DNA from: a virus
DNA: 64,000 nucleotides
Virus record (IMG/VR): IMGVR_UViG_3300031576_000010
Location: 35,909-99,908 of that record
Reading direction: 5' to 3' (one strand)
How positions within the stretch are numbered: the first letter of the stretch is position 1; each line of letters begins with the position of its first letter. Shown piece after piece: positions 20,551 to 49,889 of the stretch. Made by a program: the position numbers and the translations under genes. The notes under the pieces are model-generated. The model saw only the letters and a program-made list of their open reading frames with translations. It was not told the DNA's origin and made no database searches.

Positions 20551-20564
20551 GGGCCTGTGCGGAC

Positions 20565-20597
20565 AGGCTACCGCGAGATCGCACGGAATTTTAGAAG
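20565..20597 (-). promoter_or_regulatory. Putative late promoter (CTTCTAAAATTCCG-N13-TAGCCT)
   Basis: Conserved four-copy motif. Confidence 0.75.
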
Positions 20598-20647: not shown

Positions 20648-21568
20648 GTGAGATTAGACCAGGCCGAAGCACGCAAGCTGCATGAGCAAGGGTTGAATGG
20701 TGCCGAGATCGCCAAACGACTCGGGGTGTGGCGCCAGACCGTCACCCACTATTTTCGCTCGATCGGGATCCGGGGCCACCAGTACGGTTTCGTCAAGACG
20801 CTCACGGATCGTCAACGCGCCATGCTGTATGGGACGGTGCTTGGGGACGGGCACCTCAGCCGCCGACAAGAGTCGTACCTTGCCATGAAGCACGGATGGG
20901 TGCAACGCGCATACCTCACCTGGAAGGTCGAGGAACTTGCGCCGCTGTTCAAGACCACTAAGTTGCATGAAGGGACAACGACGATCCGACACAAGACCTA
21001 TCGGTTCGCCCAGATACATTCACGAGTACATCCACTACTGGGAGATGCACGCCGGCTGTTCTACACGGATGGCGGCAAGAAGACGGTAACGCACGACGTG
21101 CTCGACGCCCTCGACAAGCTCGGGCCGTTGCTTTCGCTCGCACTGGCCGTCTGGTACATGGACGACGGGTCGCTGTACGACGATGGTCGCTACGCGCAGA
21201 TCACGCTTGGTGGAATGAGCCAGCCAGCATATCGACGGACTGCCGAGTGGTTTTGTCAACGAGGGTTCGCGGGCGCGATTGGCAAGCACACAACCAAGAA
21301 CAGCGTGGTGTTCCGAATGCACGCTCAAGGATCGCGCAGGTTTGCCAAGACCATCATCCCGCACATCTACCCGAGCATGAGGTACAAGATCCCATCCTCG
21401 TTGGAAGACCCACCAATACGATCTGTCTCGACTACTTGTTCCGCATGTGGATCGTTGATTACGCGTCCGAAGTCGCACGCGAGATCCTACAGCCTGTTCT
21501 GCTCACGTGAGTGTTACCACGAAGCGCGACGCGCTCGGCTCAAGTCGTTAGCCCGAGAACACGGATGA
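20648..21568 (+). mobile_element. Free-standing LAGLIDADG homing endonuclease with N-terminal HTH and C-terminal Zn finger
   Basis: LYGTVLGDGHL and LAVWYMDDGS motifs; CSAC...FCSREC; antisense to the late operon. Confidence 0.9.
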
Positions 21569-24906: not shown

Positions 24907-25652
24907 GCTGTTCGCTCTTGGTTGATCGGAAGACCGCGGTCGCGCCGGTACGCGATGTACTCGTCGTCCGTTCGCTTACCCTTGCTCTGATTGCATCGAG
25001 CACACGCAACAACGATGTTGCTTGGGTAGTTCGTTGGGCCCAGGTCCTTCCTGGCTAGTGGAATCTTGTGATCGATGTGCGGTCTGGTTACCTCTGCGCC
25101 GCAGTAGTAGCAGAGGTGTTGCTGCGCCAACAGTTTCGCAACGACGTCCTTGCTGGTCCATCTGCCCGGTATCGCTCGCTTGGCCGACCGATACCTGTGC
25201 GTGATGCCCCTCCGCTTCATCGGGTTCTTCAGGTCGTATCGCCGCTTAATCTGCCTGATGAGATCGGGGTGCTCGTCGGCATACTGTCGGTTCCTCGCCG
25301 CAGCTCTGGCGCGGTTGTGCTGATACCATGCCTTCGAGATAGCCTTGACTTTGACGGGGTGCTCCGCGGCCCATCGCTTTGCTGCGGCGCAAGCACAAGA
25401 TCGACACCGCGTCACGAGCCCCGAACAATCACGCTTGTTCCGATGGAAAAACTTGATCGTCGCCGGACGAACGGCACCACACGCTGAGCATGTTCGCTTC
25501 CCCGCGTTCACCGGCTGGAATACCTTCTGCTTGGCAGCATCGTTTCTGCACTGCTTGCAAACCGAAGTGAGACCGAGCGTGCCCATCAAGTTTCGATGAA
25601 AAAATCTGAGCGACGCGGGCTTGCGTTCGCCACATTTCGAGCACGTTCTCAC
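24903..25652 (-). mobile_element. HNH homing endonuclease with N-terminal Zn-ribbon repeats
   Basis: CYYCG...HIDHKIPL...N..SNIVVACARCNQSKG. Confidence 0.9.
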
Positions 25653-26527
25653 GTGCTCAAGAACCCGCGAAAGAGGATCCCAGAGGGTGCGGCCGAAAGC
25701 AGTTGAAGCAGCCGGAACGACACACCAGCTTGGATGTGAATCGATCCCATCGTCGCGAAGTTGAGCTTGAACAACGGCACCAACCGATCGAGCCGCTGTT
25801 GCAGGAACGATAGAAATGACTGGAGTGGTTGTTGATGGTTGATGCTAAAACTATACCCCTGGTCAGAGTAATTGACAAGATCCGTGTCGATCGAGAACAA
25901 CGTCTGGCTCTGGAGCGCCACCAACGTGGCGGTGTCGATGAGGAGCTGGCCGTGCGTCTTGAACGGGTAGTTCTCCAACAGGATGTTGGTGTTCGGCTGG
26001 TACAGGTTGATGACGTTGAGGCCGCCCTCCAGGTACATGAGGAGCTGGGCGTCCGAGTAGCCACCGAACAGGTTGGTCGCCTCCTCGACGATCTTGACCG
26101 CCTTGTCGATCTGGAGCCGGAAGCTCGGCAGGTAGGCCAGGACCCTCGGGTCCAGCACCTTAACGACTTGGAGGACGACGGCCGGCTCGGTCCCGACCCC
26201 ACCGATCGCCCGCCAGATGAAGAAGAGGTCGCGCACCAGGTTGGTCTCGGTTTGGGTCGGCACATTGACGGGTGCGAGCGGGTCGCCCCAGCCGATGTAG
26301 TAGTCGCCGGTCGTGCCGGCCGGCTTGATGATGCGGGTCGGGGGCGACGGCGGCGCGAAGAAGTCGTCCTCGTACAACACCGTCTTGCTCACGTCCATGA
26401 CGCGAAGGTGCAGGTAGGTGGCGTCGACCTTGTCGCCGTTCGCGTCGAACAACGTGATGTTGATGCGCTGGTCGAAGTTCTGGAGGATCAGCTCGACCGC
26501 GTTGGCGTTGAGGAAGGGGGCGGGCAC
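25649..26527 (-). CDS. Head-tail adaptor-like protein
   Basis: YSD.QL..YL...L..IN and NYSDQGYSFSI motifs; position; late promoter upstream. Confidence 0.65.
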   Translation of the reverse strand: MPAPFLNANAVELILQNFDQRINITLFDANGDKVDATYLHLRVMDVSKTVLYEDDFFAPPSPPTRIIKPAGTTGDYYIGWGDPLAPVNVPTQTETNLVRDLFFIWRAIGGVGTEPAVVLQVVKVLDPRVLAYLPSFRLQIDKAVKIVEEATNLFGGYSDAQLLMYLEGGLNVINLYQPNTNILLENYPFKTHGQLLIDTATLVALQSQTLFSIDTDLVNYSDQGYSFSINHQQPLQSFLSFLQQRLDRLVPLFKLNFATMGSIHIQAGVSFRLLQLLSAAPSGILFRGFLST

Positions 26528-26533
26528 GAACCC

Positions 26534-26566
26534 AGCCTAGCGCCACAACGTACGGAATTTTAGAAG
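26534..26566 (-). promoter_or_regulatory. Putative late promoter (CTTCTAAAATTCCG-N13-TAGGCT), leaderless
   Basis: Conserved motif; -10 is 6 nt from the GTG start. Confidence 0.75.
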
Positions 26567-26567
26567 T

Positions 26568-26765
26568 CTAGTCGCCAGTGTCGCCCGGCTTGATCCGGGA
26601 GGGTGTCGTACCTGGTCGAAGGGCGGGCCCGCGCGTCCCCACGTTCGCCGGCTTGATGAGCGGGGCGGTTGTGCCGGGCCGCATGGCTGGCCCACGCGTC
26701 CCCACGTTCGCCGGCTTGATGAACAGGTCTGTGGTCGATCCAGGACGAATACGGCTACGCGTCAT
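26568..26765 (-). CDS. Small protein made of 21-aa tandem repeats
   Basis: IKPANVGTRGPA(M/L)RPGTT x2 plus partial copies; 28-bp direct repeat at 26632 and 26695. Confidence 0.55.
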   Translation of the reverse strand: MTRSRIRPGSTTDLFIKPANVGTRGPAMRPGTTAPLIKPANVGTRGPALRPGTTPSRIKPGDTGD

Positions 26766-27240
26766 CAGATCGTCCCTCGATCCCGTTCGATGACGACACA
26801 ATCACCATAGCCTGCTCGACCTCACCCTCCCGGATGTCTCCCGCGCGAGCGGACTTGAGACGCCTGACGGCACGACGGATCCGGTACGTCACCTCACCCG
26901 AGAGCTTCTCCTTGTCGGCCGCCTGCTGCACTACCGACAGGATGGTCCTGACCTCCTCGACCGTGAACTTCAGCTTCACGAGAGCTGGATCCGCGATCCT
27001 CTCATTCACCTCCTTTGCCCACTCACCCACCTCTTCCTTGCCGTAATTAGCAGGCGTGACAAAGGATTCGCACGTGCCATCACCCTCGATCGCCTCGATG
27101 GCATCGCTGTTGCGGTCTGTCGCATCGTCCTTCGGATTGTGAGCCGCGAGGAGGGTTCGCAGGTGAAACCGTTCCTCGAATGTCATCGCGATGAACCATA
27201 CCTGACTCGCCCGCTCCCGCTTCATTTTCGATTCTCCCAT
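26755..27240 (-). CDS. Hypothetical protein
   Basis: GAGG RBS; packed ORF. Confidence 0.7.
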   Translation of the reverse strand: MGESKMKRERASQVWFIAMTFEERFHLRTLLAAHNPKDDATDRNSDAIEAIEGDGTCESFVTPANYGKEEVGEWAKEVNERIADPALVKLKFTVEEVRTILSVVQQAADKEKLSGEVTYRIRRAVRRLKSARAGDIREGEVEQAMVIVSSSNGIEGRSDDA

Positions 27241-27262
27241 CGTTGGCCTCTTGGGGATCGCC

Positions 27263-27541
27263 CTACCGTGTCTTCGTCGTAGGCGTCAACTCTTGTGCGA
27301 TAGCGGCCAGCTCCTCCTTGGTCAGCTCTTCGCTGGGGGTGAGGGTCTGAAGTGCCCAATCAAGCTTGTGCTGGAGCGCCTCTGCCTTGACCTTGCTGTC
27401 GCGTAGCTTCTCGTTGGCATCAGCGTACATACTGGTGACGGCGGTCGGCTCATCATCGTCGGGTACCGTCTTCTTCCGTTTAACGCGCGCGTGGATCGCG
27501 TAGGAGCCACCTTTCTCCTTCCCATCCTTCCCATCCTTCAT
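27263..27541 (-). CDS. Hypothetical protein
   Basis: ATGA overlap with the upstream gene. Confidence 0.6.
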   Translation of the reverse strand: MKDGKDGKEKGGSYAIHARVKRKKTVPDDDEPTAVTSMYADANEKLRDSKVKAEALQHKLDWALQTLTPSEELTKEELAAIAQELTPTTKTR

Positions 27542-27798
27542 CGCCGCCCTCTCGATTCTAGGACCGCATCAACGACAGCCGATAGCTTCGCGACCATCGT
27601 GTCGAAGTCGTGCTTGACCTCAAGAACCCGATCGGTCACCGCTTTCGCCTCCTCTACCCGTTTGTCCTGTAGCACGTCCTTCTCACGCTGCAGAGAACGA
27701 TTCTGCTTCCACTGGAGCCAGTTGAACGCAGCGAGCGCGATGGCGGCGATCGATTGTAGTCCGCCGACCCTGAGGACTTCTGTCAGGAACTCCCACAC
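27538..27798 (-). CDS. Small single-TM protein with coiled coil (holin/BhlA-like)
   Basis: N-terminal hydrophobic helix followed by a charged coil. Confidence 0.5.
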   Translation of the reverse strand: MWEFLTEVLRVGGLQSIAAIALAAFNWLQWKQNRSLQREKDVLQDKRVEEAKAVTDRVLEVKHDFDTMVAKLSAVVDAVLESRGRR

Positions 27799-27808
27799 AA
27801 AACCACCG

Positions 27809-28069
27809 TCAGAAGCCCTCGACCTGCTTCACAAGCGCGACCAGGGCCGCAGCCGCGCCGTCGAGAATAGCCTGGTCATCGGGATCGAGAGACCCAGGCG
27901 GTAGGTCGACCGAGCGGGTCGCGTAGACACTCCCATCGGACACCCGCTTCAGGATGTAGGAGAGCGTCAAGATGACGCCAGTACCGTCCTCGGTCGGTCG
28001 CACGTACACGGCGGTGAAGTCTGCGATCGTCGGCTCGACGATCTCCTCGGTGATCATCTTCGTGGCCAT
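27809..28069 (-). CDS. Putative tail fibre chaperone/hypothetical protein
   Basis: GGAGG RBS; directly after the fibre gene. Confidence 0.55.
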   Translation of the reverse strand: MATKMITEEIVEPTIADFTAVYVRPTEDGTGVILTLSYILKRVSDGSVYATRSVDLPPGSLDPDDQAILDGAAAALVALVKQVEGF

Positions 28070-28078
28070 GATACCTCC

Positions 28079-29764
28079 CTACGATGAGAACGCCGCGAGG
28101 CGCCAGCGTGTCGAGGTCGAGTCGTAGTAGAGCCAGACCGAGCTGCCGGGCCCGACCGTCCGCGCGACTCCGCCGGGCAGCGTGAAGCGGTTGGCCGCTG
28201 CCGAACCGGCGTCCTCGTTGTTCAGCGTGAACGTGTTGGCAGTCGAAATGTTCAGGAGCAGGATCAGGCGTCCGTCCGTCGGGGCGGGCGGGACCATGCC
28301 GGTGACGACAGCAGCAGCTCCGGTATCCTGACGAACGACCGCTGCCGTCGTGAGCCCGGCCGGGTTGTAGTCGTTGTTGGTGGACGCCGCCACGAGGGCG
28401 GCCGGGGTGATGTCGTTCGCGAAGTTGATCCCGTCGTTCGCGAAGAGCGTCCCGTCGAATTGCGCGCGGCCTGCCTGTACCCAGAGCGCCAGCGCCGTCG
28501 TGATGGTCGCGTTCGTCCCGGCGACCGGAGCACCCAAGATCGCGAACGTCGCCGCAGTGGTGATCGTGCTAGCCGCAACGAACCCGTAGGTCGGCTGCCC
28601 GACCCTGTACGCCCTCTGCGTCGCGAGCGCGCCGGTCGCGAACTGGACGGTGCGCGTGAGGTTCCAGAAGACGTCGCTCGCCTCGACGCCGGCCGCGAGC
28701 GTCGTGTGCGCTGCGGCGTTCGCGGTCCACATCACCGGGCTGCCGGCCACCGCGACCGTCTGGCTCAGCGTGTGAGCCGAGACGCCCAGCGAGAGCTTGG
28801 TCACGCCACCCGTCACGAGCCCGAGCGTGTCGGCCGCGGGGCCGAACATGCCGGTGTTCGTATCAGTGTTGAAGGCGTAGCCGGGTGTACCAACCGCACC
28901 GACTGCAGCGAAGACTTGCGTCGACCCGCTGAGGTTGCACGAGGCAGCAGAGATGATGCACCGGTTCGCGCCGCCGGTTGTGATGTTGAGGGTGTTGACC
29001 CCGCCGGACAGGATCCCCGTGTCGGGGTCACCGGAGAACGAGTAGGTCGGGGCTCCGACCGCTCCTGCCGGTCCAAGAACGACGAGAGTCGAGGTGAGCG
29101 ACGCGGTAGACAGCGACAGGCGCGAGACGCCGCCTGTCGCCCAGCCGATCGTGTTCGCGGCCGACTCGAACATCCCCGTGTCGACGTCGCCGCCGAACGT
29201 GTAGCTCGGGAGCGCGGCCGTCCCCAGTGGAGCCACGAATGGCAAGATCGAGAAAATGCCCGCCGCCACCGAGATCGACATGGTGAAGACGCCGCCGATG
29301 GAAAATCCGAGGAAGTTCGCACCGACGTTGAACATCCCGGTGTCTGGATCGCCCGAGAACGAGTAGGACGGCAGCAGGGCCGTCCCTGCCGGACCCAGCA
29401 GTGGCACCGACCACGTGTGCGCGCCCGTCCAGGTCGGCGAGAAAGTCTGGTCCACCGCCATCGAATCGACCGCGACCGTGATACCCGTCCCGGCTCCGAC
29501 GTCGAACGTCCTGTCGGCCGACAGGTCCCCGCCGCCCGTCAAGCCAGCGCCAGCCGTCAGCGTCCGGGTCGGAGGAACGCCGCCCCCGCCCCCCGCGATC
29601 GTGATGATCGTACGGCTCGGATCGGCCGGGTCGGCCGTTGCGGCTACGCCCGCACCAACAAAGTTCAGGGCCGACTGGGTCGTACGGACAAGCACGCCCT
29701 CGTCGTAGACATCGAGCGCGGACGATCCTGCTGATCTCGCACCAGTAAGTCGTAGACCCGGCAC
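28079..29764 (-). CDS. Tail fibre protein
   Basis: RTLTAGAGLTGGGDLSADRT motif; four P.Y.F..D.DTG(M/I)F shaft repeats; Ala/Gly/Thr-rich. Confidence 0.8.
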   Translation of the reverse strand: MPGLRLTGARSAGSSALDVYDEGVLVRTTQSALNFVGAGVAATADPADPSRTIITIAGGGGGVPPTRTLTAGAGLTGGGDLSADRTFDVGAGTGITVAVDSMAVDQTFSPTWTGAHTWSVPLLGPAGTALLPSYSFSGDPDTGMFNVGANFLGFSIGGVFTMSISVAAGIFSILPFVAPLGTAALPSYTFGGDVDTGMFESAANTIGWATGGVSRLSLSTASLTSTLVVLGPAGAVGAPTYSFSGDPDTGILSGGVNTLNITTGGANRCIISAASCNLSGSTQVFAAVGAVGTPGYAFNTDTNTGMFGPAADTLGLVTGGVTKLSLGVSAHTLSQTVAVAGSPVMWTANAAAHTTLAAGVEASDVFWNLTRTVQFATGALATQRAYRVGQPTYGFVAASTITTAATFAILGAPVAGTNATITTALALWVQAGRAQFDGTLFANDGINFANDITPAALVAASTNNDYNPAGLTTAAVVRQDTGAAAVVTGMVPPAPTDGRLILLLNISTANTFTLNNEDAGSAAANRFTLPGGVARTVGPGSSVWLYYDSTSTRWRLAAFSS

Positions 29765-30142
29765 CTACGCCTCCTCACCCCAAATCTGGATCGGGCCACC
29801 ACCCGTGATGTTGCGGAGCCGGAAGAAAATGATGGCGTCGTCGATGTCGTCTTGGATGAACAGGCGCGCGTGCGGAACGATCGGCAGCGTGCCGGCCAAC
29901 GCCCACGTGTTGTCGACCGTGTTGAGCACCCAGACCTCGATGTCGGCCGTGTTGGCCGCGGGCGTCGTAAACACGAGCTTAGCGTGATACCCGCGCGTCC
30001 AGATCGGACGGTTGATGTTCTCACGATAGCTCGCGAGCCTGAGCAGTTCGGTAGCGGGCGGAGCCGACACGTTGGGATCGGCGTCGTCGACTACTCCCAC
30101 CTTCGTCCTGACGAGTCGAAGCTGGAAGCCTTCACCAGCCAT
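29765..30142 (-). CDS. Hypothetical beta-rich virion protein
   Basis: Packed ORF with GAGG RBS. Confidence 0.6.
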   Translation of the reverse strand: MAGEGFQLRLVRTKVGVVDDADPNVSAPPATELLRLASYRENINRPIWTRGYHAKLVFTTPAANTADIEVWVLNTVDNTWALAGTLPIVPHARLFIQDDIDDAIIFFRLRNITGGGPIQIWGEEA

Positions 30143-30145
30143 CCG

Positions 30146-30577
30146 TCACCTCGTTTCCAACACGTTGACCGCCCCGTAGACCAGCACGCCCGTCGCAACA
30201 GCTCCGAGCAAGAACCCGATTACGAAGTCGTTCCGTTCCCAGAAGCCCGGTTTGGCCGTTTCCTGCGCGCTCGTCCGCGCCTTCGCGAGCTGGTCGGCCG
30301 TTTCGTGTAGGAGCCGATCGCGCACTCCCAACCGACCGGCCAGCTCATCGTTGGCGAGCTGGAGGTGCGCGTACGCCAGAAACCGCTGCTCCGCCACGAG
30401 AAGGCCGTCGTATGGGGCGGGCTGACCAGCCTCCAGCGGGACGACATTGGGTTCGGGCTGGGCCGCATCCGCGGTAACGGGCAGTTGGGCGGTGGGGACG
30501 GGATCGTCCCCGTACGCATCCCCATATGGCCACGCCAACAAGATGGCGATGGCCGCAATGCTTGCCAGCCGGATCAA
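30146..30577 (-). CDS. Membrane protein with signal peptide, coiled coil and C-terminal TM (spanin-like candidate)
   Basis: Hydrophobic N- and C-termini; GQPAPYDGLLV; TTG start overlaps the upstream TGA. Confidence 0.5.
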   Translation of the reverse strand: MIRLASIAAIAILLAWPYGDAYGDDPVPTAQLPVTADAAQPEPNVVPLEAGQPAPYDGLLVAEQRFLAYAHLQLANDELAGRLGVRDRLLHETADQLAKARTSAQETAKPGFWERNDFVIGFLLGAVATGVLVYGAVNVLETR

Positions 30578-31095
30578 CGCGACCTCGCGGGTGGGTGAGC
30601 CTTCGCCCAAGCGGCCAGCGCGGCCAACCTAGCCTTCCTGTCCGGCATGGCGGCCGCCTTGTCCAACTCGGCCTTGAGCGATTCGACGTGCTCCTTGACC
30701 TTGTCGTCACCAGCCGATAGCGCATGCTCGACCGCCGCCGATGCGGCCCGGCGCTCCCGCCCCGCCGCCGTCGCGGTTGAGACGACTTCGTGGGCTCCAA
30801 TGCCCGCGAACGCGGCCCCCACTCCTCCCAACCCCGCCATCAGGATGGTGGCCCATGGCTTGTGCATCGCGAGAGCGCCGAGCGCGCCCGCCAGAAACCC
30901 AAGCGCCGAAGCGACGAGGGGCCGGAGCCACTTGTGGTGGGCCGACAACTTCTCCAGTAGCTTCTGGCCCACCAGCGTCTTCGAGAAGTCCATCAACAGC
31001 TTGATGACGGCCGCGAGGGTAGCGATCGCACCCCACGCCTTCGCGTTGGTTGCGATGCCGATACCACTGTTGATGATGTCGAGCATGCTTTCCAT
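30574..31095 (-). CDS. Multi-TM membrane protein (holin-like)
   Basis: About three hydrophobic segments; AAGGAG RBS before MESML. Confidence 0.55.
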   Translation of the reverse strand: MESMLDIINSGIGIATNAKAWGAIATLAAVIKLLMDFSKTLVGQKLLEKLSAHHKWLRPLVASALGFLAGALGALAMHKPWATILMAGLGGVGAAFAGIGAHEVVSTATAAGRERRAASAAVEHALSAGDDKVKEHVESLKAELDKAAAMPDRKARLAALAAWAKAHPPARSR

Positions 31096-31106
31096 CAGAT
31101 AGCTCC

Positions 31107-31826
31107 TTAGCCCTGGTCGATCGTCATGCTGACGAACTCGATCGTGATACCGAGCTGGTTGACAGCATCCAAGTTGGTGACGCGGACGACGATCGGGAAG
31201 CCTTTGACGCCCCACCGGTTCTCGAACTTCCGCTGCGGATTGGAGGAAGGTTCGTTGGGAGGCCAGATCCGGACGGTGTCGCCAGGATCGAACAAGAGAA
31301 ACTCCTCGTCGGTCAGGTGGGCGGCGGCCGCCCCCTGTGACGTCGGACCAAAGAACACCTCGCTCGTGAAATTACGAGCCTGCGGCACCGCGACCACCAA
31401 CGTGAACGTGACGGCATCGGTCTGGTTGGTCGCGGGGATGAGCGCGAGGTTGACGTTCACCTGAAGGGACGATCCATCTCCACCCGGGAGCATGAGGAAG
31501 AAGGAGCCGCTCGTCCCCCCTGAAAGGGGAACGTCCGGCCCCGGCTCCAACGCGCCAGGCGCCTGCCACCGGAGTCGCCGCGGATTCGCGAAGAACGCGA
31601 GCGTCCCGGGCGCCGCACCCGTCACCGTATCCTGTGACGAGCTGACGATCGTCACACCCGTCACGTTGACGAGCGCGGACGGGGTCCGATCACCATTCGT
31701 CCGGGCGGTGAACGGACGGCCGTAGACCGTCAGCTCGCGGAACGCCCGGTCTTCCATCGGCATGACGATGTCCTTGGCCGAGGAGGGCGGCACAAGCGCT
31801 GGAATCGCATACCAATTGAATCGCAT
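31107..31826 (-). CDS. Virion structural protein carrying the shared WQAPG beta domain
   Basis: Domain shared with 18790..20550 and 22354..24906. Confidence 0.65.
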   Translation of the reverse strand: MRFNWYAIPALVPPSSAKDIVMPMEDRAFRELTVYGRPFTARTNGDRTPSALVNVTGVTIVSSSQDTVTGAAPGTLAFFANPRRLRWQAPGALEPGPDVPLSGGTSGSFFLMLPGGDGSSLQVNVNLALIPATNQTDAVTFTLVVAVPQARNFTSEVFFGPTSQGAAAAHLTDEEFLLFDPGDTVRIWPPNEPSSNPQRKFENRWGVKGFPIVVRVTNLDAVNQLGITIEFVSMTIDQG

Positions 31827-31844
31827 CGTACCCGCCTCCTTCGA

Positions 31845-33086
31845 CTACTCGACCATCGCCTGGCGACGGATGAAGTCGTCACCGTCATCCTGAGCGACCG
31901 GCGCTTCCTCGGGGCCCGGGACCTCCTGCAACTTCTGGATCTCGGTGGTGGCCCACCGCTTGACGCTCGGCCAGTACGACTTGGCCCGCACGTGCTCCAG
32001 CTCGTCCTCGCTCAGACGACCGAGCGACTGGAGGTCCATGAGGATCTGGCTGGCGGGCCTGATGTTGTTGCTGTCGAACGCGACCCCATCGCCGGACGAC
32101 CGCTTCTGCTCGTCTTGGATGTCCTGCTGGACGTTGTACATGAGGATGCGGACGCGGTCACGGATGACGTCCTCCTCGTTGACGAAGAGGTTTGCCTCGA
32201 CTCGCTGGCGCTCGCCGTACCGAGTGGCACCAGCAGGGCCGGAGCCCGACTCGACGACCCGGTGGATCGGTTGAGGGGCGGGACCCGACTCCACCGTCTC
32301 ACGAAACGCCCGACGCGCCTCCTCGGACCGGCGCAGCGCCTCGTCGGCCGTGATGTGCATCGCCTTGGCGCGCTGGTCGAAGTAGGCGCGGTACTCGTCC
32401 TCCTCCATGATGCGGAGGTACCGCTGACCCGTCTGCTTGTCGCGCGCGTTGAATGCCTTGCGGACATCCACGCTCGACTTGAGATCCTGGAACGACACCA
32501 TCGCGGTCAGGTTGATGGGGTCGGGGGACGCGGGGATCGAGACGGACGTGGAGGCGCCGCCCGGCAACACGAACTGGATGACGAAGTTGCTGGGGTGCAT
32601 GTTCTGCACGTAGATGTCGCGCTCTTCCCGCCAGAACTCCGTCCAGTTGAGGATGTCGCCGTTCTTGTCGAGGTACTGCTTGCCGTTCATCACTTGAGGT
32701 CTCCTTTCGACCTGTTCGCGACCGATCCGGACCAACCGGACGGTCGGTGGCTCATACGTGACAAGGCGGACACGTCCCTCACGGAGGAACGAGGTCGCCT
32801 TTGCTGCAACGAAGACGGTCGTGAACACACCATCCTTGTCGAGGACGCGGACGGGTTCATCGACTCGTCGGAAGTAGTAGCGGTCGTGTGGCGGCGCCCC
32901 CGCGCTCCCCGGCTTGAGCCGGATGGTGCAGAGGGGCGAGTGGGCGAACACACGAGCCTCATGATCGCGCAGGAGGATTCGGGCGCGCCCGTTCGACACG
33001 TAGTAGAGGAAGAGGCGGTCGGGTCCGATGACGGCAACGAGGGGGCGCCCGTTGCCGTTGCTTCCTCGTTCGCCGTTCGACCCCAC
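31845..33086 (-). CDS. Protein with two tandem RRXRR/PLMP-like N-terminal domains and an unknown C-terminal region
   Basis: VAVIGPD..GRARILLRDHEARV..PLCTIRL and VRVLDKDG..AKATSFLREGRVRLV..PPTVRL. Confidence 0.7.
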   Translation of the reverse strand: MGSNGERGSNGNGRPLVAVIGPDRLFLYYVSNGRARILLRDHEARVFAHSPLCTIRLKPGSAGAPPHDRYYFRRVDEPVRVLDKDGVFTTVFVAAKATSFLREGRVRLVTYEPPTVRLVRIGREQVERRPQVMNGKQYLDKNGDILNWTEFWREERDIYVQNMHPSNFVIQFVLPGGASTSVSIPASPDPINLTAMVSFQDLKSSVDVRKAFNARDKQTGQRYLRIMEEDEYRAYFDQRAKAMHITADEALRRSEEARRAFRETVESGPAPQPIHRVVESGSGPAGATRYGERQRVEANLFVNEEDVIRDRVRILMYNVQQDIQDEQKRSSGDGVAFDSNNIRPASQILMDLQSLGRLSEDELEHVRAKSYWPSVKRWATTEIQKLQEVPGPEEAPVAQDDGDDFIRRQAMVE

Positions 33087-33088
33087 AC

Positions 33089-34600
33089 CTACGCGCTCCC
33101 CAGCTTGTAGACCATGCAGGCCGGAACGAATGGACGGATCAAAGAGAAGAAGCGATCATGCGACCGGCTCGACAGCCGGAGCGTGAAACCAACGCCCTGT
33201 CGATTTTTTGTCAGCTTGAGCCCGAACCGTTCGGCCAGGAAGCCGGCGAGTACATCGATCGACTCGATGTCGAACGAGTTGGTCGCGAACGAAATGCTTC
33301 CGTTCGACACGTTGCGCCAGCCATCATCCAGGTACAAGAGCGCCAACCCGAGTGCGTCGAGTGGCTCTAGCGTTTCAGTAGTGAGAACGCGCTTCTGGCC
33401 GTCACGGTAGACCGCGTCGTGCAGCATGGAGAAGTGCGGGTGTGAGATCGTCCAGGTCCTGTAGAATGGCTTGGCCGGCTTCTTGGCGTGGCGGTACGGA
33501 CCGTTGATCTCTGCCTGAACCAGCGGGCCCAGAAGCGCCATCTTGATCTTTAGATACTCGACCTGTGACTCGCAGTGGCCGAGCGTCAAGTGGGCGTGCC
33601 GTTCCAAACTCCAACGGCCCGCAAGCCCCGAGTCGCCCAACACCATCCCGAGGATCGCACCATGTAGCCGTTCCGGGACCTCTGTGGTCCTCCACGTCGG
33701 AATGCCAGCGGCCTCCTGACTTTCGAGCACGGCGGTCGGGGCATGCGCATCGAGCTTCATCCGATGCTCCGCGATAGCCGGATTATCCGATCGCCAGTGC
33801 GCCTGCATGTGGTCGCGGCGCTTCTGGCGGAAATCCGCGTCGTAACCGTGCGCTTCAGTGGCCTGCCGTTTCGAGAGACCACTCTGGAGCGGGGCCCCTG
33901 GGAACCGAGCCGCATACACTTCGAGGGTCATGTCGTGCTGGACGAGGTGCGTGCTGGAGATGTGAAAGAAATGGCGGCCACAGACCTGACAGGCCACCGT
34001 TGCGGTCTCGGGCAGCTCGACCAGCTTGGCTTCGCGGAGTAGCGCGCCCGCCGCATAGGCGGTCTTCGACGAGATCCGAACCGCCATCTTCATGCACTCG
34101 CGGCACTGCCGATGGAGCTTGCCGTTGCCACGCCTGTAGAAATGTTCGTCGGTTGCCGAAAACGTCTGCCGGCATGTCGAACAGGTGATCTCGGTCGACT
34201 CAGCCTTGTGGGCTCGCGGGGCTGCGATGCGGATGGCGGCTGCACGCGACTGCGGCGTTGCAGCAAGCGGCTCGCCCGCATGCCTGGCCCTAGCGCGCTC
34301 GCTCCAGCACACGCGACAGCGAGGCTGTAGCCGCCCTTCCTTGCGACGGTAGAAGTGGGTTTCGTCGGCCGGCTTGGTCCCACCGCAGATTTTGCAGGTC
34401 TTGACCCCACCGAGCAGCTCGAATTCACGGGCCGCAACTACGGCGGGGTCGACGACGACCCGTACTGCACGGTCGGCCGCCTCCGCCACCTGCTTGCACA
34501 GCTTGCACGTCGACAGGAGGCCCGCGGGGCTCGCGGCGTGCTTCGTGAAGAACTCGGTGGTCAGGGGTTTAGGCTGACCACACCTGCGACAGATACGCAT
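33089..34600 (-). mobile_element. Free-standing LAGLIDADG homing endonuclease with multiple Zn-ribbon repeats
   Basis: ILGMVLGDSGL and LALLYLDDGW; repeated CxxC..K...F ribbons; ATG at 34600. Confidence 0.9.
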
Positions 34601-34606
34601 ACCGCA

Positions 34607-34635
34607 AGAATAAGTGATCGAGACTGAGCTGTCAA
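34607..34635 (-). promoter_or_regulatory. Sigma70-like leaderless promoter of the endonuclease (TTGACA-N17-TATTCT)
   Basis: Canonical hexamers; ATG 6 nt after the -10. Confidence 0.7.
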
Positions 34636-34643
34636 GCAGTAGA

Positions 34644-34701
34644 GCACTCGGCACACGCCAGCCGTCACCTGGAGCGTGAGAGCTAACGTGTGCCGAAATG
34701 C
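34644..34701 (-). other. Long imperfect hairpin 3' of the major capsid gene
   Basis: TCGGCACACG...CGTGTGCCGA perfect 10-bp core with extensions; no U-tract. Confidence 0.55.
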
Positions 34702-34718
34702 CAATCATCATCAGTGCG

Positions 34719-35924
34719 CTACGGCTTCGCGCCCTTCGCGACCGCACGAGCGTTCGGGATCCCAAAGCCGATAATCTCACAGAACGCCCATCCCTTGACG
34801 GTTTCCTGTGTGACAAATCGGTTGTACGGTTCCGAGAACAGCTCGACCCGCACACCCATCTCTCCGAGGTACTCGGAGCCCGTGACCGCGTAGAAGGTTC
34901 CCGCGGGCACGACTTCCTCGACGCCGGTACCAGCCGTCGTGATGATCTGGGCGTTCAGGTAGTTGCCGATGTACCCGGCCAGGATCAGCTCCCTCTCGGT
35001 CACCGGATCCACGGTCGTCGACATCGTCTTGATGACGTCGGAGAGTTCCGCACGGTTGATGAGGAACTTCTCGACGATCAGACGATGGCGCTCGACCTGG
35101 AACCGGACGTCCTCGAAGGCGCCGGTGCCCAACGTCGTGTACGTCGTGGCCGTGTTGACGGCCGTGGAGGCGCGGTCCAGGAGCAGACGCCCTCGCTTGT
35201 CCTCGTTCAGCTCGATCTCCTGACGCGCGGTGTCCTGCGCGCGATCGAGAACGTCGTAGTTCATCTGGTAGATGTCGAAGATGTCGACCGAGGTGAACGC
35301 GACGATCTTGGTCTCGTCCGGCTGGATGTACCGACCATGGAGGCGTGCCTCGATGCCCTGTCCATCCTGACCGACGACGAAAGCGACCGAACGAACGTCC
35401 TTCGCGATCCTGAACAGCTCGCCCTGCGCGAGCGGACGCACACGGTACACCTTGCGCGCCCATCCCTCGTAGTCGACGATGTCCTTGATCGGAAGGAGCA
35501 GTTCCTGGCCGACGAGCGCGAAGCCCTCGCCGGTCGGGTCCTGCATCGCCTGGGCCACGATGTTCATCTTGGCCTGGCGTTCCTGGAGAGACTCGCGCGC
35601 CGCCGCCGTCCTGATGAGCGACTGCGACGCGCCCGGGCCCACGTTCTGGAGCAGGTGGGCGATCTGCCGAAGGACATCTCCGTTGTCGTAGGCAGACATC
35701 TGCCCCGACTTGTCGAACATGCGGTCCTTCGATTCCGCACGGCCCGACCCCGGACCGACCTTGCGGCCGGCCTGGCGGAGGGGGTTGAGCTGTCCGGACT
35801 CGTCCCACACACGTTCCTCCGCCCTTGACTGCGGTGTGTGTCGGACGCTCCCGAGCGGCAAGCCCCTCGAAGCGGTCTTGGGTGTTCCGGACTGGGAGGT
35901 CCGGAACGGATTTACTCGTTCCAT
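34719..35924 (-). CDS. Major capsid protein (HK97-fold)
   Basis: PIKDIVDYEGWARK, YDVLDRAQD.ARQEI...ED, C-terminal GFGIPNARAVA; follows protease and decoration genes. Confidence 0.85.
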   Translation of the reverse strand: MERVNPFRTSQSGTPKTASRGLPLGSVRHTPQSRAEERVWDESGQLNPLRQAGRKVGPGSGRAESKDRMFDKSGQMSAYDNGDVLRQIAHLLQNVGPGASQSLIRTAAARESLQERQAKMNIVAQAMQDPTGEGFALVGQELLLPIKDIVDYEGWARKVYRVRPLAQGELFRIAKDVRSVAFVVGQDGQGIEARLHGRYIQPDETKIVAFTSVDIFDIYQMNYDVLDRAQDTARQEIELNEDKRGRLLLDRASTAVNTATTYTTLGTGAFEDVRFQVERHRLIVEKFLINRAELSDVIKTMSTTVDPVTERELILAGYIGNYLNAQIITTAGTGVEEVVPAGTFYAVTGSEYLGEMGVRVELFSEPYNRFVTQETVKGWAFCEIIGFGIPNARAVAKGAKP

Positions 35925-35943
35925 CTTGTTCCTCCGTTGTCCG

Positions 35944-36723
35944 TCACGTCACCAGGTTGCCTGTTGCGATCCAGCCCAGGAAGGGGTCGGACGCGCGTGG
36001 CGCCTGGATCACTCGACCCAGGATGTCGCCACCGCCCGCGTTCGTCACCTGCCCGGCCGTCACTCCCGTCCCCACGCTGGCCCTGATGACGTCGCCAGGT
36101 GTGTACGTGAGTGTCGCGTCGAACTCGCTCGTGAACAGGGTCGACTGTCCCTGGATGATCGCGATGCGACCGCCCTGGACCGTCACGTCGTCGTTCTGGT
36201 TCCAGAAGTTGCGCCCCTGGAAGTCCAGGTCGGCGTTCGTGACCGCCGACTGGTACGTGATGAAGACGGTCTGACCCTGGACCACCGTGCCCGGAAGCGG
36301 GTTGTTCCACGTGATGGTCCCGTTCGCATTGACCACGTAGTTGGCGCCACCTTCTGCGATGTTGGTGCCGCCGCCGTTCGCAGCCGTGCGAATGTGGGTC
36401 GTGCCGATGACGGCCGCGCGCCTGAGCGCGACGGTACCGCCAGCCGCGGGAACGACGGTGGCTTCGTCCACGATGATGGTGTTGCCAGCACCCGTGTCCT
36501 TCGTCCACTTCGCGATCCCGAAGACCACGACACCCGGACCGTTCGCGCCGACGGTTGCGTCACCGCGGACGATCTGGCTCGCCGTGTTCATCTTGACGAC
36601 CTGTCCCTGCCGGAAGGTCGCGTTCGGATCCGCCTCGAACGGGCCGGGTTCCGATGCGATCTTGCAGCGTGTCAGATGTAGCCCTGCCGGGAAAATCTGA
36701 CTGATGAAAGCCTCGATTGCCAT
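35944..36723 (-). CDS. Capsid decoration/cement protein
   Basis: Between scaffold and capsid genes; T.EFD...YTPG and G.V.QAP...DPFLG. Confidence 0.7.
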   Translation of the reverse strand: MAIEAFISQIFPAGLHLTRCKIASEPGPFEADPNATFRQGQVVKMNTASQIVRGDATVGANGPGVVVFGIAKWTKDTGAGNTIIVDEATVVPAAGGTVALRRAAVIGTTHIRTAANGGGTNIAEGGANYVVNANGTITWNNPLPGTVVQGQTVFITYQSAVTNADLDFQGRNFWNQNDDVTVQGGRIAIIQGQSTLFTSEFDATLTYTPGDVIRASVGTGVTAGQVTNAGGGDILGRVIQAPRASDPFLGWIATGNLVT

Positions 36724-36753
36724 TTCTACCTCACCTCCTCTCCTGGCTCAGAT

Positions 36754-39162
36754 TTAGGAGTTGGACGACCGCTTCCCGAGATGCCCCAGATCCCGGGCTG
36801 CCTCGCGCACACGCACGAAGCCTGGTCGTCCGACACTTGCGCGGATCGCCATCCGCTTGTCTTCCCTGTCCTCGACGGTCCGTTCGGACGTCCGGAGGAC
36901 CGGGTTGCCCTCGATCGCGCGGCTCTCGATCTCCACCGATCTGGCGGACCGGCCCCGCTCGCTCGGCCCCGTCGAAACGACCTGGGTGGCGAGTGCGTGG
37001 CGGAGGTCCTGCTCGGAATCGGTGATGACACGATCGTCGAGCGTGTAGAGCGTCTTGGCGCGCGCGATGAGGCTGGCGACGTGGGCGGGCATGCCTTCCT
37101 GCATGCCCCGCTCGACCAGCATGGCGGTCAGGTCGGTCTCGCAGCCCGGCCATGACTCGTTCGCGTTGATGTCGAACGGCTTGAGCAGTGCGTCGGCCAT
37201 CGCGGCCTTGAGCGCGCTCTCCTCACGGTTGAGCCGCTGACGCTCGCTCGCGAGCCGCAGGCACCGCTCGAAACGGCCCATCATGTCCTTGGCCTTCTTC
37301 TCGGCCAGCCGCTCGACCCGCCCTTCGAGCGCCGCCATCTTCTGCTCGAACGCCTTCTGCTGAGCGGCGATCTTCCGCTGGAAGAACGTCTGGATCTTGG
37401 CGACCCGCTCCTCGTGGTCGTGGGCTTCGTCGTCGAGGATGGCGTCGCCGATGCCACGCTCCTCGTGCTCTTCCTTCATGTTGGATTCGGGGTCGGACGT
37501 GGACGACAGCGAATCGGCCGAGACGTCTTCGACGTCCTCCGCGTTGGTGACGCGATCGTCGATCGCGGAGCCAGGTCCACCACCCAGATCCACTTCCTTG
37601 TCGGAGTCGGCGTCGGCGGCCGTGTCGGTCGCGGGCTTGGCGCGCGCGTCCTCCAAGGTGTCGTCGGGGTTGTCGAGTGCGGGCGCCTGCCCGTCGATCT
37701 CGTCGGCCAGGTTGTCGTCGTGGTGTTCCAGCACCTGCGATCGCTTGGGGAACGGGATCCCACTGAACCGCCGCATCGTCTGGTCGAGCCCGTAGTGCGC
37801 GATGTTGCCCAGCAACACGTCGCAGAACTGGACCGCCTGCTTGCGGTTCGCCAGCCGTCCGGGCGGCCGGACCGCGAAGATGCCGGCGCCGGACCGCTCG
37901 TCGAACACCCGGAAGTTGCCCGCGCGCGTCGCCTCGACACGGACGTGCATGTACTTGCGGGCGTACCGACGCGACAGCCGGCGGGCCGCCACGCTCATGA
38001 TGCCGATCTCCGCGTCCGACATGGGCGCGGCGTCTTCCAGCTCCTTCTTGTCCTTGTACCGTTCCAGCGGATCTCCTCCGGCCGCCAGCAACTCGTCGTC
38101 CTCGGCGATCGGCATGTCCCCCTCGCCCGCGAACGGCATCATGCTGTCGTCGTCCTGCTGGGCGACGACGGGCGGGGCCGCGGCGGGTGGAGCGGGCGGA
38201 ATCCCCTGCGCCATGATGAGGTCATCGTCCGGGTCCTTGGGAGGCTGGCTCGGCTGAGCCGCCTTGGGAGGCGGGACGGTGACCGGAGCGGGGGGCTGCT
38301 GGGCCGTACGGGTCGTCATGGTCGTTTCCTTCATGTGGGCGAGTTCTTGCTCCAGCTTGACCAGCCGGCTCTTGAGCACGAGCAACTCGGACTCGGCACC
38401 AAGCCGCTCGGTCTCGGCGATCTTGGCTTGCAGGGCGAGGACCTCTTGGGTGAGGGCTTTGGGGTCAGCAGGCTGGTCGACCGCCGACAACTCCTCGTAG
38501 CAGACGCCCCCGCACCGCTCGTACGCGAGCTTGCCGTCGAACTCCTTCATCTTGTGGTTGGCGATGTGGCGGCAGAACTGGTACCGGTTGGTCGCGCGGT
38601 TGTCACAGACCGAGCAGATCGTGTACTCGGCCACGCACCCCATCGAGAACGCGTCAATCGCGCCCGTCCGGATCCCGTCCGCGTAGACCGGGTCCTTCGA
38701 CGCGTCGACCGCGATGAGGCACTCGACGTACTGGTCGTCCGGGTTGGTCCGGTTGAACGTCGAATCGACCACGAACCCGCGGGCCGTCCGGGGGTTGTCG
38801 GCCCTGTGGTTGATGTGGTTGGGCTTGTAGTCGAACGTCTTGTAGACGTGGCGGGCAAGCCGGTGGTCGAACCGGAGCAGCTCTTCGATGGGGAACGCGT
38901 CACCGTTCTCGTTGGGGGAGGGGCGGTCGGGTGACAGCTCGGCCGTCACGGCCCGCGCGACCACGAAGCAGTAGTCGGCCGGATTTTTCGAGATGTCGTA
39001 CACATCGGCCACGAGCATGAGGGCCGACTGGAAGTCGATGGCGGACGGAAAACCGCCGCTGTACGCACTTGGCGCACTCGACTCACCCGATTGGGCACGA
39101 TGGCGAAGCTGGCCGTCGTCCAGGGAACCGACGATCACCGCACGAGCGGACTTGCGGAACAT
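36754..39162 (-). CDS. Prohead protease fused to scaffold
   Basis: NENGDAF..EEL, YKTF, FSMGC..CSVC, ELSAVDQPADP; acidic coiled C-terminal half; ATG at 39162. Confidence 0.8.
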   Translation of the reverse strand: MFRKSARAVIVGSLDDGQLRHRAQSGESSAPSAYSGGFPSAIDFQSALMLVADVYDISKNPADYCFVVARAVTAELSPDRPSPNENGDAFPIEELLRFDHRLARHVYKTFDYKPNHINHRADNPRTARGFVVDSTFNRTNPDDQYVECLIAVDASKDPVYADGIRTGAIDAFSMGCVAEYTICSVCDNRATNRYQFCRHIANHKMKEFDGKLAYERCGGVCYEELSAVDQPADPKALTQEVLALQAKIAETERLGAESELLVLKSRLVKLEQELAHMKETTMTTRTAQQPPAPVTVPPPKAAQPSQPPKDPDDDLIMAQGIPPAPPAAAPPVVAQQDDDSMMPFAGEGDMPIAEDDELLAAGGDPLERYKDKKELEDAAPMSDAEIGIMSVAARRLSRRYARKYMHVRVEATRAGNFRVFDERSGAGIFAVRPPGRLANRKQAVQFCDVLLGNIAHYGLDQTMRRFSGIPFPKRSQVLEHHDDNLADEIDGQAPALDNPDDTLEDARAKPATDTAADADSDKEVDLGGGPGSAIDDRVTNAEDVEDVSADSLSSTSDPESNMKEEHEERGIGDAILDDEAHDHEERVAKIQTFFQRKIAAQQKAFEQKMAALEGRVERLAEKKAKDMMGRFERCLRLASERQRLNREESALKAAMADALLKPFDINANESWPGCETDLTAMLVERGMQEGMPAHVASLIARAKTLYTLDDRVITDSEQDLRHALATQVVSTGPSERGRSARSVEIESRAIEGNPVLRTSERTVEDREDKRMAIRASVGRPGFVRVREAARDLGHLGKRSSNS

Positions 39163-39173
39163 GTCGACACGGG

Positions 39174-39206
39174 AGGTTACCCCGTGAAGACGCGGAATTT
39201 TAGAAG
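39174..39206 (-). promoter_or_regulatory. Putative late promoter (CTTCTAAAATTCCG-N13-TAACCT)
   Basis: Conserved motif heading the head-gene operon. Confidence 0.75.
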
Positions 39207-39214
39207 TCGGTTTG

Positions 39215-39379
39215 CTACTTGCCGGACGGGCGATCGGCGGGCGGGGGAACCGGTGGTGCGGCCGCCCCTCTCGGCGGCGAAGCGGACGTGTGGGCGCAAC
39301 CGCCCACCACCCCACACACCGAGCACTTCTTGTCGAGCACCCCGATGATCGGGGCCTTCCCACTCTTCTTGAACGACAT
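39215..39379 (-). CDS. Small Cys/Pro-rich hypothetical protein (MSFKKSGK...)
   Basis: GGAGG RBS; read manually. Confidence 0.45.
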   Translation of the reverse strand: MSFKKSGKAPIIGVLDKKCSVCGVVGGCAHTSASPPRGAAAPPVPPPADRPSGK

Positions 39380-39390
39380 GGTCGGACCTC

Positions 39391-39759
39391 CTAGTTGGCG
39401 GTGGCCGAGAACATCTCGGCGGCCTTCTGGTCGGCGAGGTCATCGATCCTGATGGTCGATCCCGACTCCGACACGGCACGGACATCGTACGGCCTCTTGA
39501 TGCACCGGTCGAGCAGGTGGTCCAGGTAGACACGATCGAACCGGACAACCTTGCGCCGGACCGTCACGGTCACGCCCCGGACGTCGCGTGGCTCGTGGAC
39601 GATGAGGGGTCGATCGACCCACGTGTCAAACGCGCGTTGGAGGGGCCAATCGGCCGCCCGGCACTTGATGACAACCCGGCCCGTTTCAGTGTCGTGGACG
39701 ACGACCGCGACGTCCACGTCGGACTCGCGGTTCCGGATGATGGCGAACCGACGGGCCAT
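39391..39759 (-). CDS. Hypothetical protein
   Basis: TGATG coupling to the upstream ORF. Confidence 0.6.
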   Translation of the reverse strand: MARRFAIIRNRESDVDVAVVVHDTETGRVVIKCRAADWPLQRAFDTWVDRPLIVHEPRDVRGVTVTVRRKVVRFDRVYLDHLLDRCIKRPYDVRAVSESGSTIRIDDLADQKAAEMFSATAN

Positions 39760-39995
39760 CACAGCGACTCTGAAGACGACGATGGTGGATCCTGCATCAT
39801 GAGTGCGGTGCGCCCTGATGGTCGGCACGGCTCGCACTCACGCACGTCTGGCGCCCAGACACGGCAGCACCGCGGACAGACCCAACCGCCAGGCAGGACG
39901 ATGCTCGGGACCGGCGCATCAGCGGGCGTGATCGTGACGCTATGGCGCCAGCACTTCCCGCTCGTGATGGTCGCGCAGTCGCGGCAGAACTCCAT
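39759..39995 (-). CDS. Small Zn-binding hypothetical protein
   Basis: CRDC and GWVCPRC..VWAP...C.PC. Confidence 0.55.
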   Translation of the reverse strand: MEFCRDCATITSGKCWRHSVTITPADAPVPSIVLPGGWVCPRCCRVWAPDVRECEPCRPSGRTALMMQDPPSSSSESL

Positions 39996-40210
39996 CACAG
40001 CGACGATCCACCGTGGGCCGCCCGTCTCCACTGCACCGCCATCGAGCCGGGCAGCGAGATGGTCTGGCGCTTGGCTCGCTCGCCGCACCCGTCGGTCGGG
40101 CACGCCACCTCGAACTCGGGCCCGTTGGCCGTCAACTCCCGGTGTTCCGATGACGATAGAAGGATCTCGTTCCGGTGTTGCGCGGGGCACTCGACGTCGA
40201 ACAGGGGCAT
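39995..40210 (-). CDS. FmdB-like Zn-ribbon protein
   Basis: MPLFDVEC...H...CP..GCG..AKR..S. Confidence 0.65.
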   Translation of the reverse strand: MPLFDVECPAQHRNEILLSSSEHRELTANGPEFEVACPTDGCGERAKRQTISLPGSMAVQWRRAAHGGSSL

Positions 40211-44064: not shown

Positions 44065-44070
44065 CTCCGA

Positions 44071-44122
44071 CCTCCCTTCCAGCTTACAGATACAGCCTAG
44101 CACGGCGGCTTGCGTGTGTCAA
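44071..44122 (-). promoter_or_regulatory. Early sigma70 promoter plus leader cassette (TTGACA-N17-TAGGCT...GTAAGCTGGAAGGGAGG)
   Basis: 34 bp identical to 47314..47347. Confidence 0.85.
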
Positions 44123-47306: not shown

Positions 47307-47313
47307 CTTCCCG

Positions 47314-47365
47314 CCTCCCTTCCAGCTTACAGATACAGCCTAGCACGACGCCGGGCAGGTGTCAA
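47314..47365 (-). promoter_or_regulatory. Early sigma70 promoter plus leader cassette (copy 2)
   Basis: TTGACA-N17-TAGGCT; 34-bp direct repeat. Confidence 0.85.
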
Positions 47366-49789: not shown

Positions 49790-49823
49790 GCTGCACCTCC
49801 CCGTGGGAGTCACGTTAGTTAGT

Positions 49824-49881: not shown

Positions 49882-49889
49882 GAAGTACA

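Follow-up and report, generated by a model that had tools for sequence, protein, structure and literature searches.

Tandem IscB-type PLMP domains on a nuclease-free late protein of an uncultured phage

The PLMP domain occupies the extreme N-terminus of the IscB, IsrB and IshB proteins and has previously been known inside nucleases only. In IsrB it contacts the tandem terminal hairpins of the omegaRNA, including the hairpin with the Shine-Dalgarno (SD) sequence of the nuclease's own mRNA, and it also interacts extensively with RuvC and with the TAM-interacting (TI) domain (PMC9581776); in IscB its binding of the terminal hairpins is for the most part independent of sequence (PMC9640706). The contacts with RNA are mostly made via the backbone (PMC9581776, PMC9640706), the N-terminal domain of IF3 (IF3-N) has been published as a remote homologue (PMC9581776), and a review has called the function of the domain still unclear (PMC10734217). 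In the literature consulted, we came across PLMP domains in no proteins other than IscB, IsrB and IshB, and no tandem copy is described there. Here we describe such a tandem copy on a 413-amino-acid (aa) protein encoded in a 64,000-nucleotide (nt) stretch of viral DNA, referred to below as the window, which spans positions 35,909 to 99,908 of the IMG/VR virus record IMGVR_UViG_3300031576_000010, a record of 99,908 bp judged to be 57% complete. Solved structures of the PLMP domain are 9K30, 9K2Z, 8DMB, 7UTN, 7XHT and 9LIQ.

The 413-aa protein is very probably a late-operon phage protein, whose basic N-terminal 130 residues consist of two tandem copies of the IscB/IsrB PLMP domain and whose acidic C-terminal 280 residues form a phage-specific core of no known fold, rather than an RNA-guided nuclease. 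An earlier note on this DNA, made from the letters and their translations, had singled out two consecutive units of ~45 aa at 32725-33041; its peptides are found in the open reading frame (ORF), and its coordinates cover both units exactly. The N-terminus and the start of the protein are conserved in the closest relative (L002), and GGGGAG lies 9 nt upstream of the GTG start at 33086. The gene and its N-terminal part are laid out as follows.

31845..33086, minus strand: target gene, long form, 413 aa with a GTG start; two PLMP-like units and a core of ~280 aa
32907..33044, minus strand: PLMP-like unit 1 (aa 15-60); helix motif G-RAR-xLLR kept, PLMP tetrapeptide absent
32859..32906, minus strand: conserved linker between the units (aa 61-76); pattern G..GAP...R..FR, from the family alignment consensus
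32724..32858, minus strand: PLMP-like unit 2 (aa 77-121); helix motif degenerated to KAT-xFLR

The units are genuine PLMP-type domains on four independent lines of evidence, namely Pfam, NCBIfam, PDB sequences and structure. The Pfam family RRXRR (PF14239) matches the 413-aa query over profile positions 1-44 with an E-value of 5e-4 and 20.3 bits, which falls below the family cut-off of 25 bits; when the units were scored separately within the phage's own record, unit 1 gave E 0.004 and unit 2 (positions 1-45) E 0.13. In relatives at 43-48% identity, RRXRR matches both units, the proteins scoring 28-43 bits in total, above the cut-off, and in the relatives P0008, P0009 and P0011 it is unit 2 that forms the best RRXRR stretch (E 6e-11, 1.6e-9 and 2.2e-8). 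The NCBIfam model guided_IscB (NF040563) matches single-unit relatives over its positions 1-50 with E 3.7e-9. A 46-position profile made from 10 phage units retrieved only IscB chains at E <= 1e-4 from 177,635 distinct PDB sequences, with TbaIscB at E 1.6e-7, OgeuIscB at 3.9e-5 and the weakest IscB chain at 4.4e-5; a direct search of the full-length protein sequence against the PDB gave no match.

The structural line agrees with the profiles. AlphaFold modelled each unit as strand-strand-helix-strand-strand with a predicted local distance difference test score (pLDDT) of 83-89, about 85 for unit 2. When the model was compared with 48,161 chains by VIA-align, independently of Foldseek, the first three ranks were all N-termini of IscB/IsrB: 9k30_A (Z 7.3, root-mean-square deviation (rmsd) 2.3, 50 aa, 24% identity), 9k2z_A (Z 7.1) and 8dmb_P (Z 6.3, rmsd 2.2, 48 aa, 27% identity), and two further IscB chains stood among the top eight. 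The alignment pairs model residues 15-72 with IscB/IsrB residues 1-54, and Foldseek gave a probability of 0.99 to both 8dmb_P and 9liq_A. Where IscB carries the PLMP tetrapeptide, on strand 2, unit 1 has L-F-L-Y, unit 2 has V-F-T-T and single-unit relatives have F-L-E-Y. The earlier note had called the units IscB-type PLMP (RRXRR) domains that had lost their tetrapeptide: the profile, PDB-sequence and structure matches all lead to IscB/IsrB N-termini, and the unit alignments lack the tetrapeptide in both copies. Two of the checks it had proposed, the RRXRR search and the structural comparison with IscB, both came out in favour of this assignment.

The likeness could in principle be convergent, with the units being generic IF3-N-like or ubiquitin-like small alpha/beta domains that have no evolutionary tie to IscB, and for such a reading one may cite the shortness of the domain, the query's Pfam score under the cut-off, the absent PLMP motif and the presence of di-ubiquitin and the IF3 N-terminal domain among the Foldseek matches. 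We regard it as very improbable nevertheless: the relatives exceed the Pfam cut-off, with E-values down to 6e-11, two independent curated profiles, one from Pfam and one from NCBIfam, agree in matching with their first 45-50 positions, the phage-unit profile retrieves IscB alone from the PDB, and the structural alignments show 24-34% identity to IscB/IsrB. The IF3 N-terminal domain (1tif) does have a similar small alpha/beta fold (Foldseek probability 0.94), but no IF3_N Pfam match was found at E <= 1, and the sequence pattern of the units is specifically that of PLMP.

No nuclease follows the two PLMP units. The matches end at position ~45-50 of 174 in the Pfam model or of 314 in the NCBIfam model, no nuclease family matches the protein, and the core model found no RNase H-like or HNH fold in comparison with the PDB, so that the earlier note's statement that neither RuvC nor HNH comes after the units is upheld by profile and by fold. 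The gene neighbours are phage structural genes and no IS200/IS605 context was seen, no dedicated search for TnpA or transposon ends having been made. Since the protein has no RuvC/HNH and no omegaRNA was found with it (the RNA searches are given below), it carries a PLMP domain but is not an OMEGA nuclease. With IscB, IsrB and IshB it shares the four-stranded sheet with one helix, the extreme N-terminal position of the domain, and a pattern of V-V-D, the helix ARxLLxxGxA and P-F/x-T/x-I-x-L. Unlike these proteins, it has no RuvC, HNH, bridge helix or TAM-interacting domain after the PLMP part; its tetrapeptide is replaced, its PLMP domain stands in tandem copies fused to an acidic core, and it is probably accompanied by a product that has no PLMP domain at all.

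The minus strand carries nearly all the genes, and the record includes head, tail and baseplate genes. On the same strand, the following features lie upstream of the target gene.

36754-39363, minus strand: protease-scaffold fusion
35944-36723, minus strand: gene for a 259-aa protein, between the protease-scaffold and capsid genes
34719..35924, minus strand: major capsid protein gene (phrog_2522, E 1.2e-53), the conserved upstream neighbour of the target gene
34643..34702, minus strand: long GC-rich hairpin directly 3' of the capsid gene stop codon, from folding

The order protease-scaffold, 259-aa gene, capsid gene and target gene is retained in the related loci L001-L007 and L017, and a strong hairpin after the capsid stop codon is present in every relative examined. 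Capsid homologues are numerous, with more than 500 at E <= 1e-20 on contigs of up to ~200 kb, and throughout the clade with a closely related capsid protein (57-96% identity) the target gene always comes directly after the capsid gene. The synteny with capsid genes that the earlier note had asked about holds across this clade. Its description of the gene as the first after the capsid gene, once an inserted endonuclease is discounted, also fits the closest relatives, which have a 96% identical capsid protein and no endonuclease.

Sixteen close relatives of the 413-aa protein were found, and when all 1.84 billion representatives were scanned, 197 clusters matched at E <= 0.001. Counted with unit and core profiles on the listed representatives, the commonest form is one unit plus core (about 87 listed proteins), two units occur in 11 listed proteins, all of them at least 43% identical to the query, and about 67 listed proteins have no detectable unit. 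Many proteins appear unit-less because their gene call starts at an internal Met, and in L017 and L018 the unit lies in frame just upstream. The single-unit form is the ancestral as well as the common one, and the tandem form is confined to the subclade of this window. Single units score alike on the profiles of unit 1 and unit 2 (27.8 vs 26.2 bits), so that neither copy is marked as the original, and the tandem form is a duplication specific to the subclade.

Among 50,697 deposited phages, a tblastn search with three family members matched only Rctr197k. The protein of this and similar uncultured phages (Rctr197k_050, KX853510) belongs to the same core family, stands in the same position after the capsid gene and shares with the window's protein an internal SD and ATG at the domain boundary; unlike the subclade of this window with its two units, the Rctr197k-like proteins have one unit, many of them with a structured hairpin leader. 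Distant relatives that consist of the core only were found by profile in PaBG (gp154, E 4.7e-13), in Motura (gp042, E 8.4e-4) and in Sen-NF (a 210-aa protein, E 3.2e-7). All three are annotated as hypothetical, and no PLMP unit was found in frame or nearby in any of them. The core homologue is convergent with a DNA primase gene in PaBG (L016, 112347-114233) and in Sen-NF (L045, 23407-25104), and Motura gp042 comes after the large terminase gene. The genes downstream of the Motura capsid gene were examined as well and are not relatives of the core. The PaBG homologue also stands two genes from a RuvC-type Holliday-junction resolvase; IscB combines PLMP with RuvC, and the likeness may be a coincidence. 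The family of unknown function phrog_17686 is matched by 47 of the 148 family members (best E 2.4e-11), the window's own core having no PHROG match at all.

The same gene probably makes two nested products, the long form from the GTG at 33086 and a core-only form from Met133, as the following two features suggest.

32700..32706, minus strand: internal SD sequence AAGGAGA inside the coding sequence, formed by the codons AGG AGA (Arg128-Arg129)
31845..32690, minus strand: nested short form starting with the ATG at Met133, 281 aa, core only, acidic with an isoelectric point (pI) of 5.1

AAGGAGA stands 9 nt before ATG133. An SD sequence with an in-frame ATG (GTG in one case) occurs at the boundary between the last unit and the core in 17 of 18 lineages, and as a control, 48 of the 234 other in-frame ATG/GTG codons of these genes are preceded by one. 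Of the gene's 47 Arg codons only three are AGR, and two of these three are the AGG and AGA that form the SD sequence in the window; across 26 genes of the window, AGA accounts for 1.5% of Arg codons. The recurrence of the signal in 17 of 18 lineages and its formation from rare AGR codons are read as selection for internal initiation. Gene callers frequently start the relatives at the internal boundary ATG. The long form would have a mass of 47 kDa and the core-only form one of 32 kDa.

In the window itself, the space between the capsid gene and the target gene is taken up by a free-standing homing endonuclease with a promoter of its own.

33089..34600, minus strand: inserted homing endonuclease of the LAGLIDADG type, free-standing and with zinc-ribbon repeats; 503 aa, counted from the ATG at 34600 (LAGLIDADG_2, E 2.6e-24)
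34607..34635, minus strand: sigma-70-like promoter of the endonuclease cassette (TTGACA, 17 nt, TATTCT; 10 of 12 consensus matches)

The stop codon of the endonuclease lies 2 nt before the GTG of the target gene. The endonuclease is absent from the closest relatives L002, L003 and L019-L021, where a spacer of 145 nt separates the capsid gene, whose protein is 96% identical, from the target gene. Other relatives have filled the same spacer differently: it holds zinc-ribbon or LAGLIDADG fragments in L023, L025, L027 and L039 and an unrelated 193-aa ORF in L004 (a site listed as L004/L028), and it is enlarged to an unexplained 1.5-2.3 kb in L030, L032 and L033. Insertion into this short spacer, between the very conserved capsid gene and the PLMP gene, is recurrent and makes it a hot spot. 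The promoter at 34607-34635 is the sole promoter-like site in 31700-36000, and read-through from it could transcribe the PLMP gene at another time than the late operon. The position of the promoter, with the -10 box ending 6 nt short of the ATG, suggests that the endonuclease mRNA is leaderless or nearly so. Two further free-standing homing endonucleases lie in low-GC3 (low third-codon-position GC) gaps of the late region, a LAGLIDADG_2 homing endonuclease with an N-terminal helix-turn-helix on the opposite strand (20648-21568, plus strand, E 4e-19) and an HNH endonuclease (24903-25652, minus strand, E 9e-9); the structural module is heavily colonised by mobile elements.

Structured leaders precede the gene in many single-unit relatives. 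In one single-unit subclade a leader of four hairpins lies directly upstream, with compensatory changes at 14 of the 30 predicted pairs and with the SD sequence covered by the last hairpin; in a second subclade (L006 vs L036) two small leader hairpins are maintained by compensatory changes. A blastn comparison of the relatives' leaders with the window returned chance words only.

As to what the protein does, the reading we favour, tentatively and with a probability of roughly 0.35-0.4, is that of an RNA-hairpin clamp joined to a core that acts in the capsid module and competing with its own short form. RNA binding, which the earlier note had proposed as well, is a best guess, by analogy with the role of PLMP in IscB/IsrB and from the basic N-terminal part (pI 10.8, against 5.1 for the core), the strongly basic charge being retained in both units. 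The internal start at the domain boundary, the structured leaders of relatives, the fixed place of the gene after the capsid gene and the weakly supported core-capsid complex described below also speak for the reading. Each PLMP module may grip the base of an RNA hairpin in a largely sequence-blind manner, as in IscB/IsrB. If the modules grip hairpins, the long form would tether or occlude structured late mRNA while the core acts in the capsid module, and as a result its own or neighbouring late messages could be translated less, or an RNA could be brought into contact with the capsid protein. Unable to bind RNA, the short form would be a competitor for the partner of the core, and the duplication would let the protein of this subclade hold two adjacent hairpins.

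Several results weigh against the hairpin clamp. Both units have lost the PLMP tetrapeptide, which in IscB is in contact with RuvC as well as with RNA, and unit 2 is also without the RAR of the helix. The PLMP domain of IsrB packs on RuvC and TI as well, so a protein-binding role would be equally compatible. A partner RNA was not found in the window: no Rfam family, HEARO/omegaRNA included, reached its gathering score in the 64 kb, and HEARO was not found within 26000-40000 at E <= 5, nor in five related loci when E <= 1 was required. The covariance model of the four-hairpin leader matched its own training sequences and nothing in the window or the tandem subclade, whose leaders (L019, L022-L025) have no definable common structure. 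In this genome the endonuclease has replaced the spacer and leader between the capsid and target genes, save for the hairpin at 34643-34702, and since the spacer is so often occupied by mobile genes, a leader acting in cis is not indispensable. Finally, the core-only distant relatives adjoin DNA primase, RuvC resolvase or terminase genes and not capsid genes.

The core is subdivided as follows.

32292..32690, minus strand: N-terminal alpha/beta subdomain and helical hairpin of the core (aa 133-265); invariant motifs NW, RDIY and DPxNL
aa 266-305: disordered stretch between the helical hairpin and the C-terminal bundle
31917..32171, minus strand: C-terminal helical bundle of the core (aa 306-390); generic helical matches only, Z <= 5.7
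31848..31916, minus strand: acidic C-terminal tail (aa 391-413); conserved end peptide DDGD-FI-RQ-M, pI 4.05

A confident model of the core based on 148 sequences (ma17bd0aaf2f9) had a pLDDT of 86.5 and a predicted template-modelling score (pTM) of 0.69, with a pLDDT of 91-97 in every block of core residues 11 to 130. Against the PDB, Foldseek and VIA-align found generic helical matches only (Z <= 5.7), and no terminase, connector, decoration or nuclease fold; the ESM Atlas had no usable neighbours for the core or for the relative P0011. In BFVD the core matches solely uncharacterised jumbo-phage proteins, and the fold matches to the core-only jumbo-phage proteins have a probability of 1.00. 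A predicted complex between the core and the capsid protein scored 0.57, against 0.02 for the best of 3 controls, a result classed as weak support. The pass mark of this score is reached by 58 of 80 solved complexes and by 2 of 110 mismatched pairs, and passes with scores <= 0.60 comprise 7 of the 80 solved complexes together with both passing mismatches; agreement between the runs amounts to at least 0% of contacts, with a pLDDT of at least 63 for the partner. Binding of the core to the capsid protein is hinted at by this prediction.

The same observations could be accommodated by a DNA-packaging or capsid accessory factor resembling gpFI of phage lambda, whose gene follows the capsid gene and which links capsid protein and terminase. 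In that case the core would dock on the capsid protein or on a terminase-DNA complex, the basic PLMP modules would bind DNA and deliver or anchor the genome, and the two forms would set the number of DNA-binding arms. The invariable place of the gene after the capsid gene, the complex prediction, the pI of the N-terminal part and the setting of the core-only relatives, beside the large terminase in Motura, beside primase and near the RuvC resolvase in PaBG and beside primase in Sen-NF, all speak for it. However, PLMP is known to contact RNA and protein, never DNA (PMC9581776, PMC9640706), the PDB searches revealed no similarity to a small terminase or packaging factor, and the complex score lies in a band where passes are more often wrong than right, so that we consider such a function unlikely, albeit the least unlikely of the alternatives to the RNA-hairpin clamp.

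The position within the late structural operon could also point to a structural or decoration protein of the virion. Nested in-frame long and short forms are common among phage structural genes, and here the short form would be the major and the long form the minor species, with the PLMP modules serving as protein-protein adaptors that clamp to a capsid or neck partner and touch no nucleic acid. The loss of the RNA-touching tetrapeptide would suit this, as would the fact that the PLMP domain of IsrB braces RuvC and TI (PMC9581776). Yet both units have kept the strongly basic charge, the core-only relatives of PaBG, Sen-NF and Motura lie in replication or terminase neighbourhoods, fold searches of the PDB matched no solved virion protein, and the main text of the PaBG paper does not mention gp154, the virion analysis of that phage having reported 14 abundant bands only, with their list covered here in part (PMC7412058). 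A virion role of this kind appears distinctly unlikely, and the RNA-hairpin clamp remains the reading that we prefer.

Three things are new in this window: the PLMP unit is duplicated in tandem, a homing endonuclease has displaced the leader, and the insertion site is recognised as a hot spot. With a natural PLMP domain that is nuclease-free and even duplicated, carried by a conserved phage protein, one can ask cleanly which RNA or protein the domain binds alone, and how, and the phage PLMP bears on the origin of the domain in IscB. It is a rather unlikely but far-reaching prospect that PLMP is an autonomous and portable RNA-hairpin clamp outside transposon nucleases, fused in a large clade of uncultured phages to a capsid-module protein. 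Together with the PLMP-less form and the structured leaders, it would act on late genes as a post-transcriptional switch, or as a device for tethering RNA, of a kind not described before; two hairpins would then be clamped by the tandem version, and the domain taken up by IscB en route to Cas9 could even derive from this phage family or be a sister to its version. In more practical terms, the nested two-form gene and the homing-endonuclease hot spot should help in the annotation of uncultured phages from a large group whose contigs reach ~200 kb.

Other elements of the window were noticed as well. A protein of 569 aa (48209-49918, minus strand) matches phrog_850, 'RNA-binding protein', with E 3.6e-38, and had been assigned to Ro60/TROVE in the earlier note; if so, it would be a second candidate RNA-binding protein of this phage. 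A 57-nt element occurs three times (44066-44122, 47309-47365 and 51064-51120), reading TTGACAC, a spacer, a -10-like box and GGAGG on the minus strand, and the copies look like repeated sigma-70-type early or middle promoters that share a leader. The 227-nt intergenic region at 26528-26754 contains two near-identical 28-nt repeats, TCATCAAGCCGGCGAACGTGGGGACGCG on the minus strand, together with a third, degenerate copy; a motif like a late promoter follows immediately downstream of them, and their role could be that of an operator or of a structured RNA. A motif reading CTTCTAAAATTCCG on the minus strand has four copies (4347-4380, 20564-20597, 26533-26566 and 39173-39206), each followed by a short GC stem and situated just upstream of a late gene start, and in appearance it is a late promoter, with a -10-like TAAAAT and a 5' stem-loop. 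Judging by the copy at 39173-39206, the start of the protease-scaffold gene is near 39150 and not at 39363.

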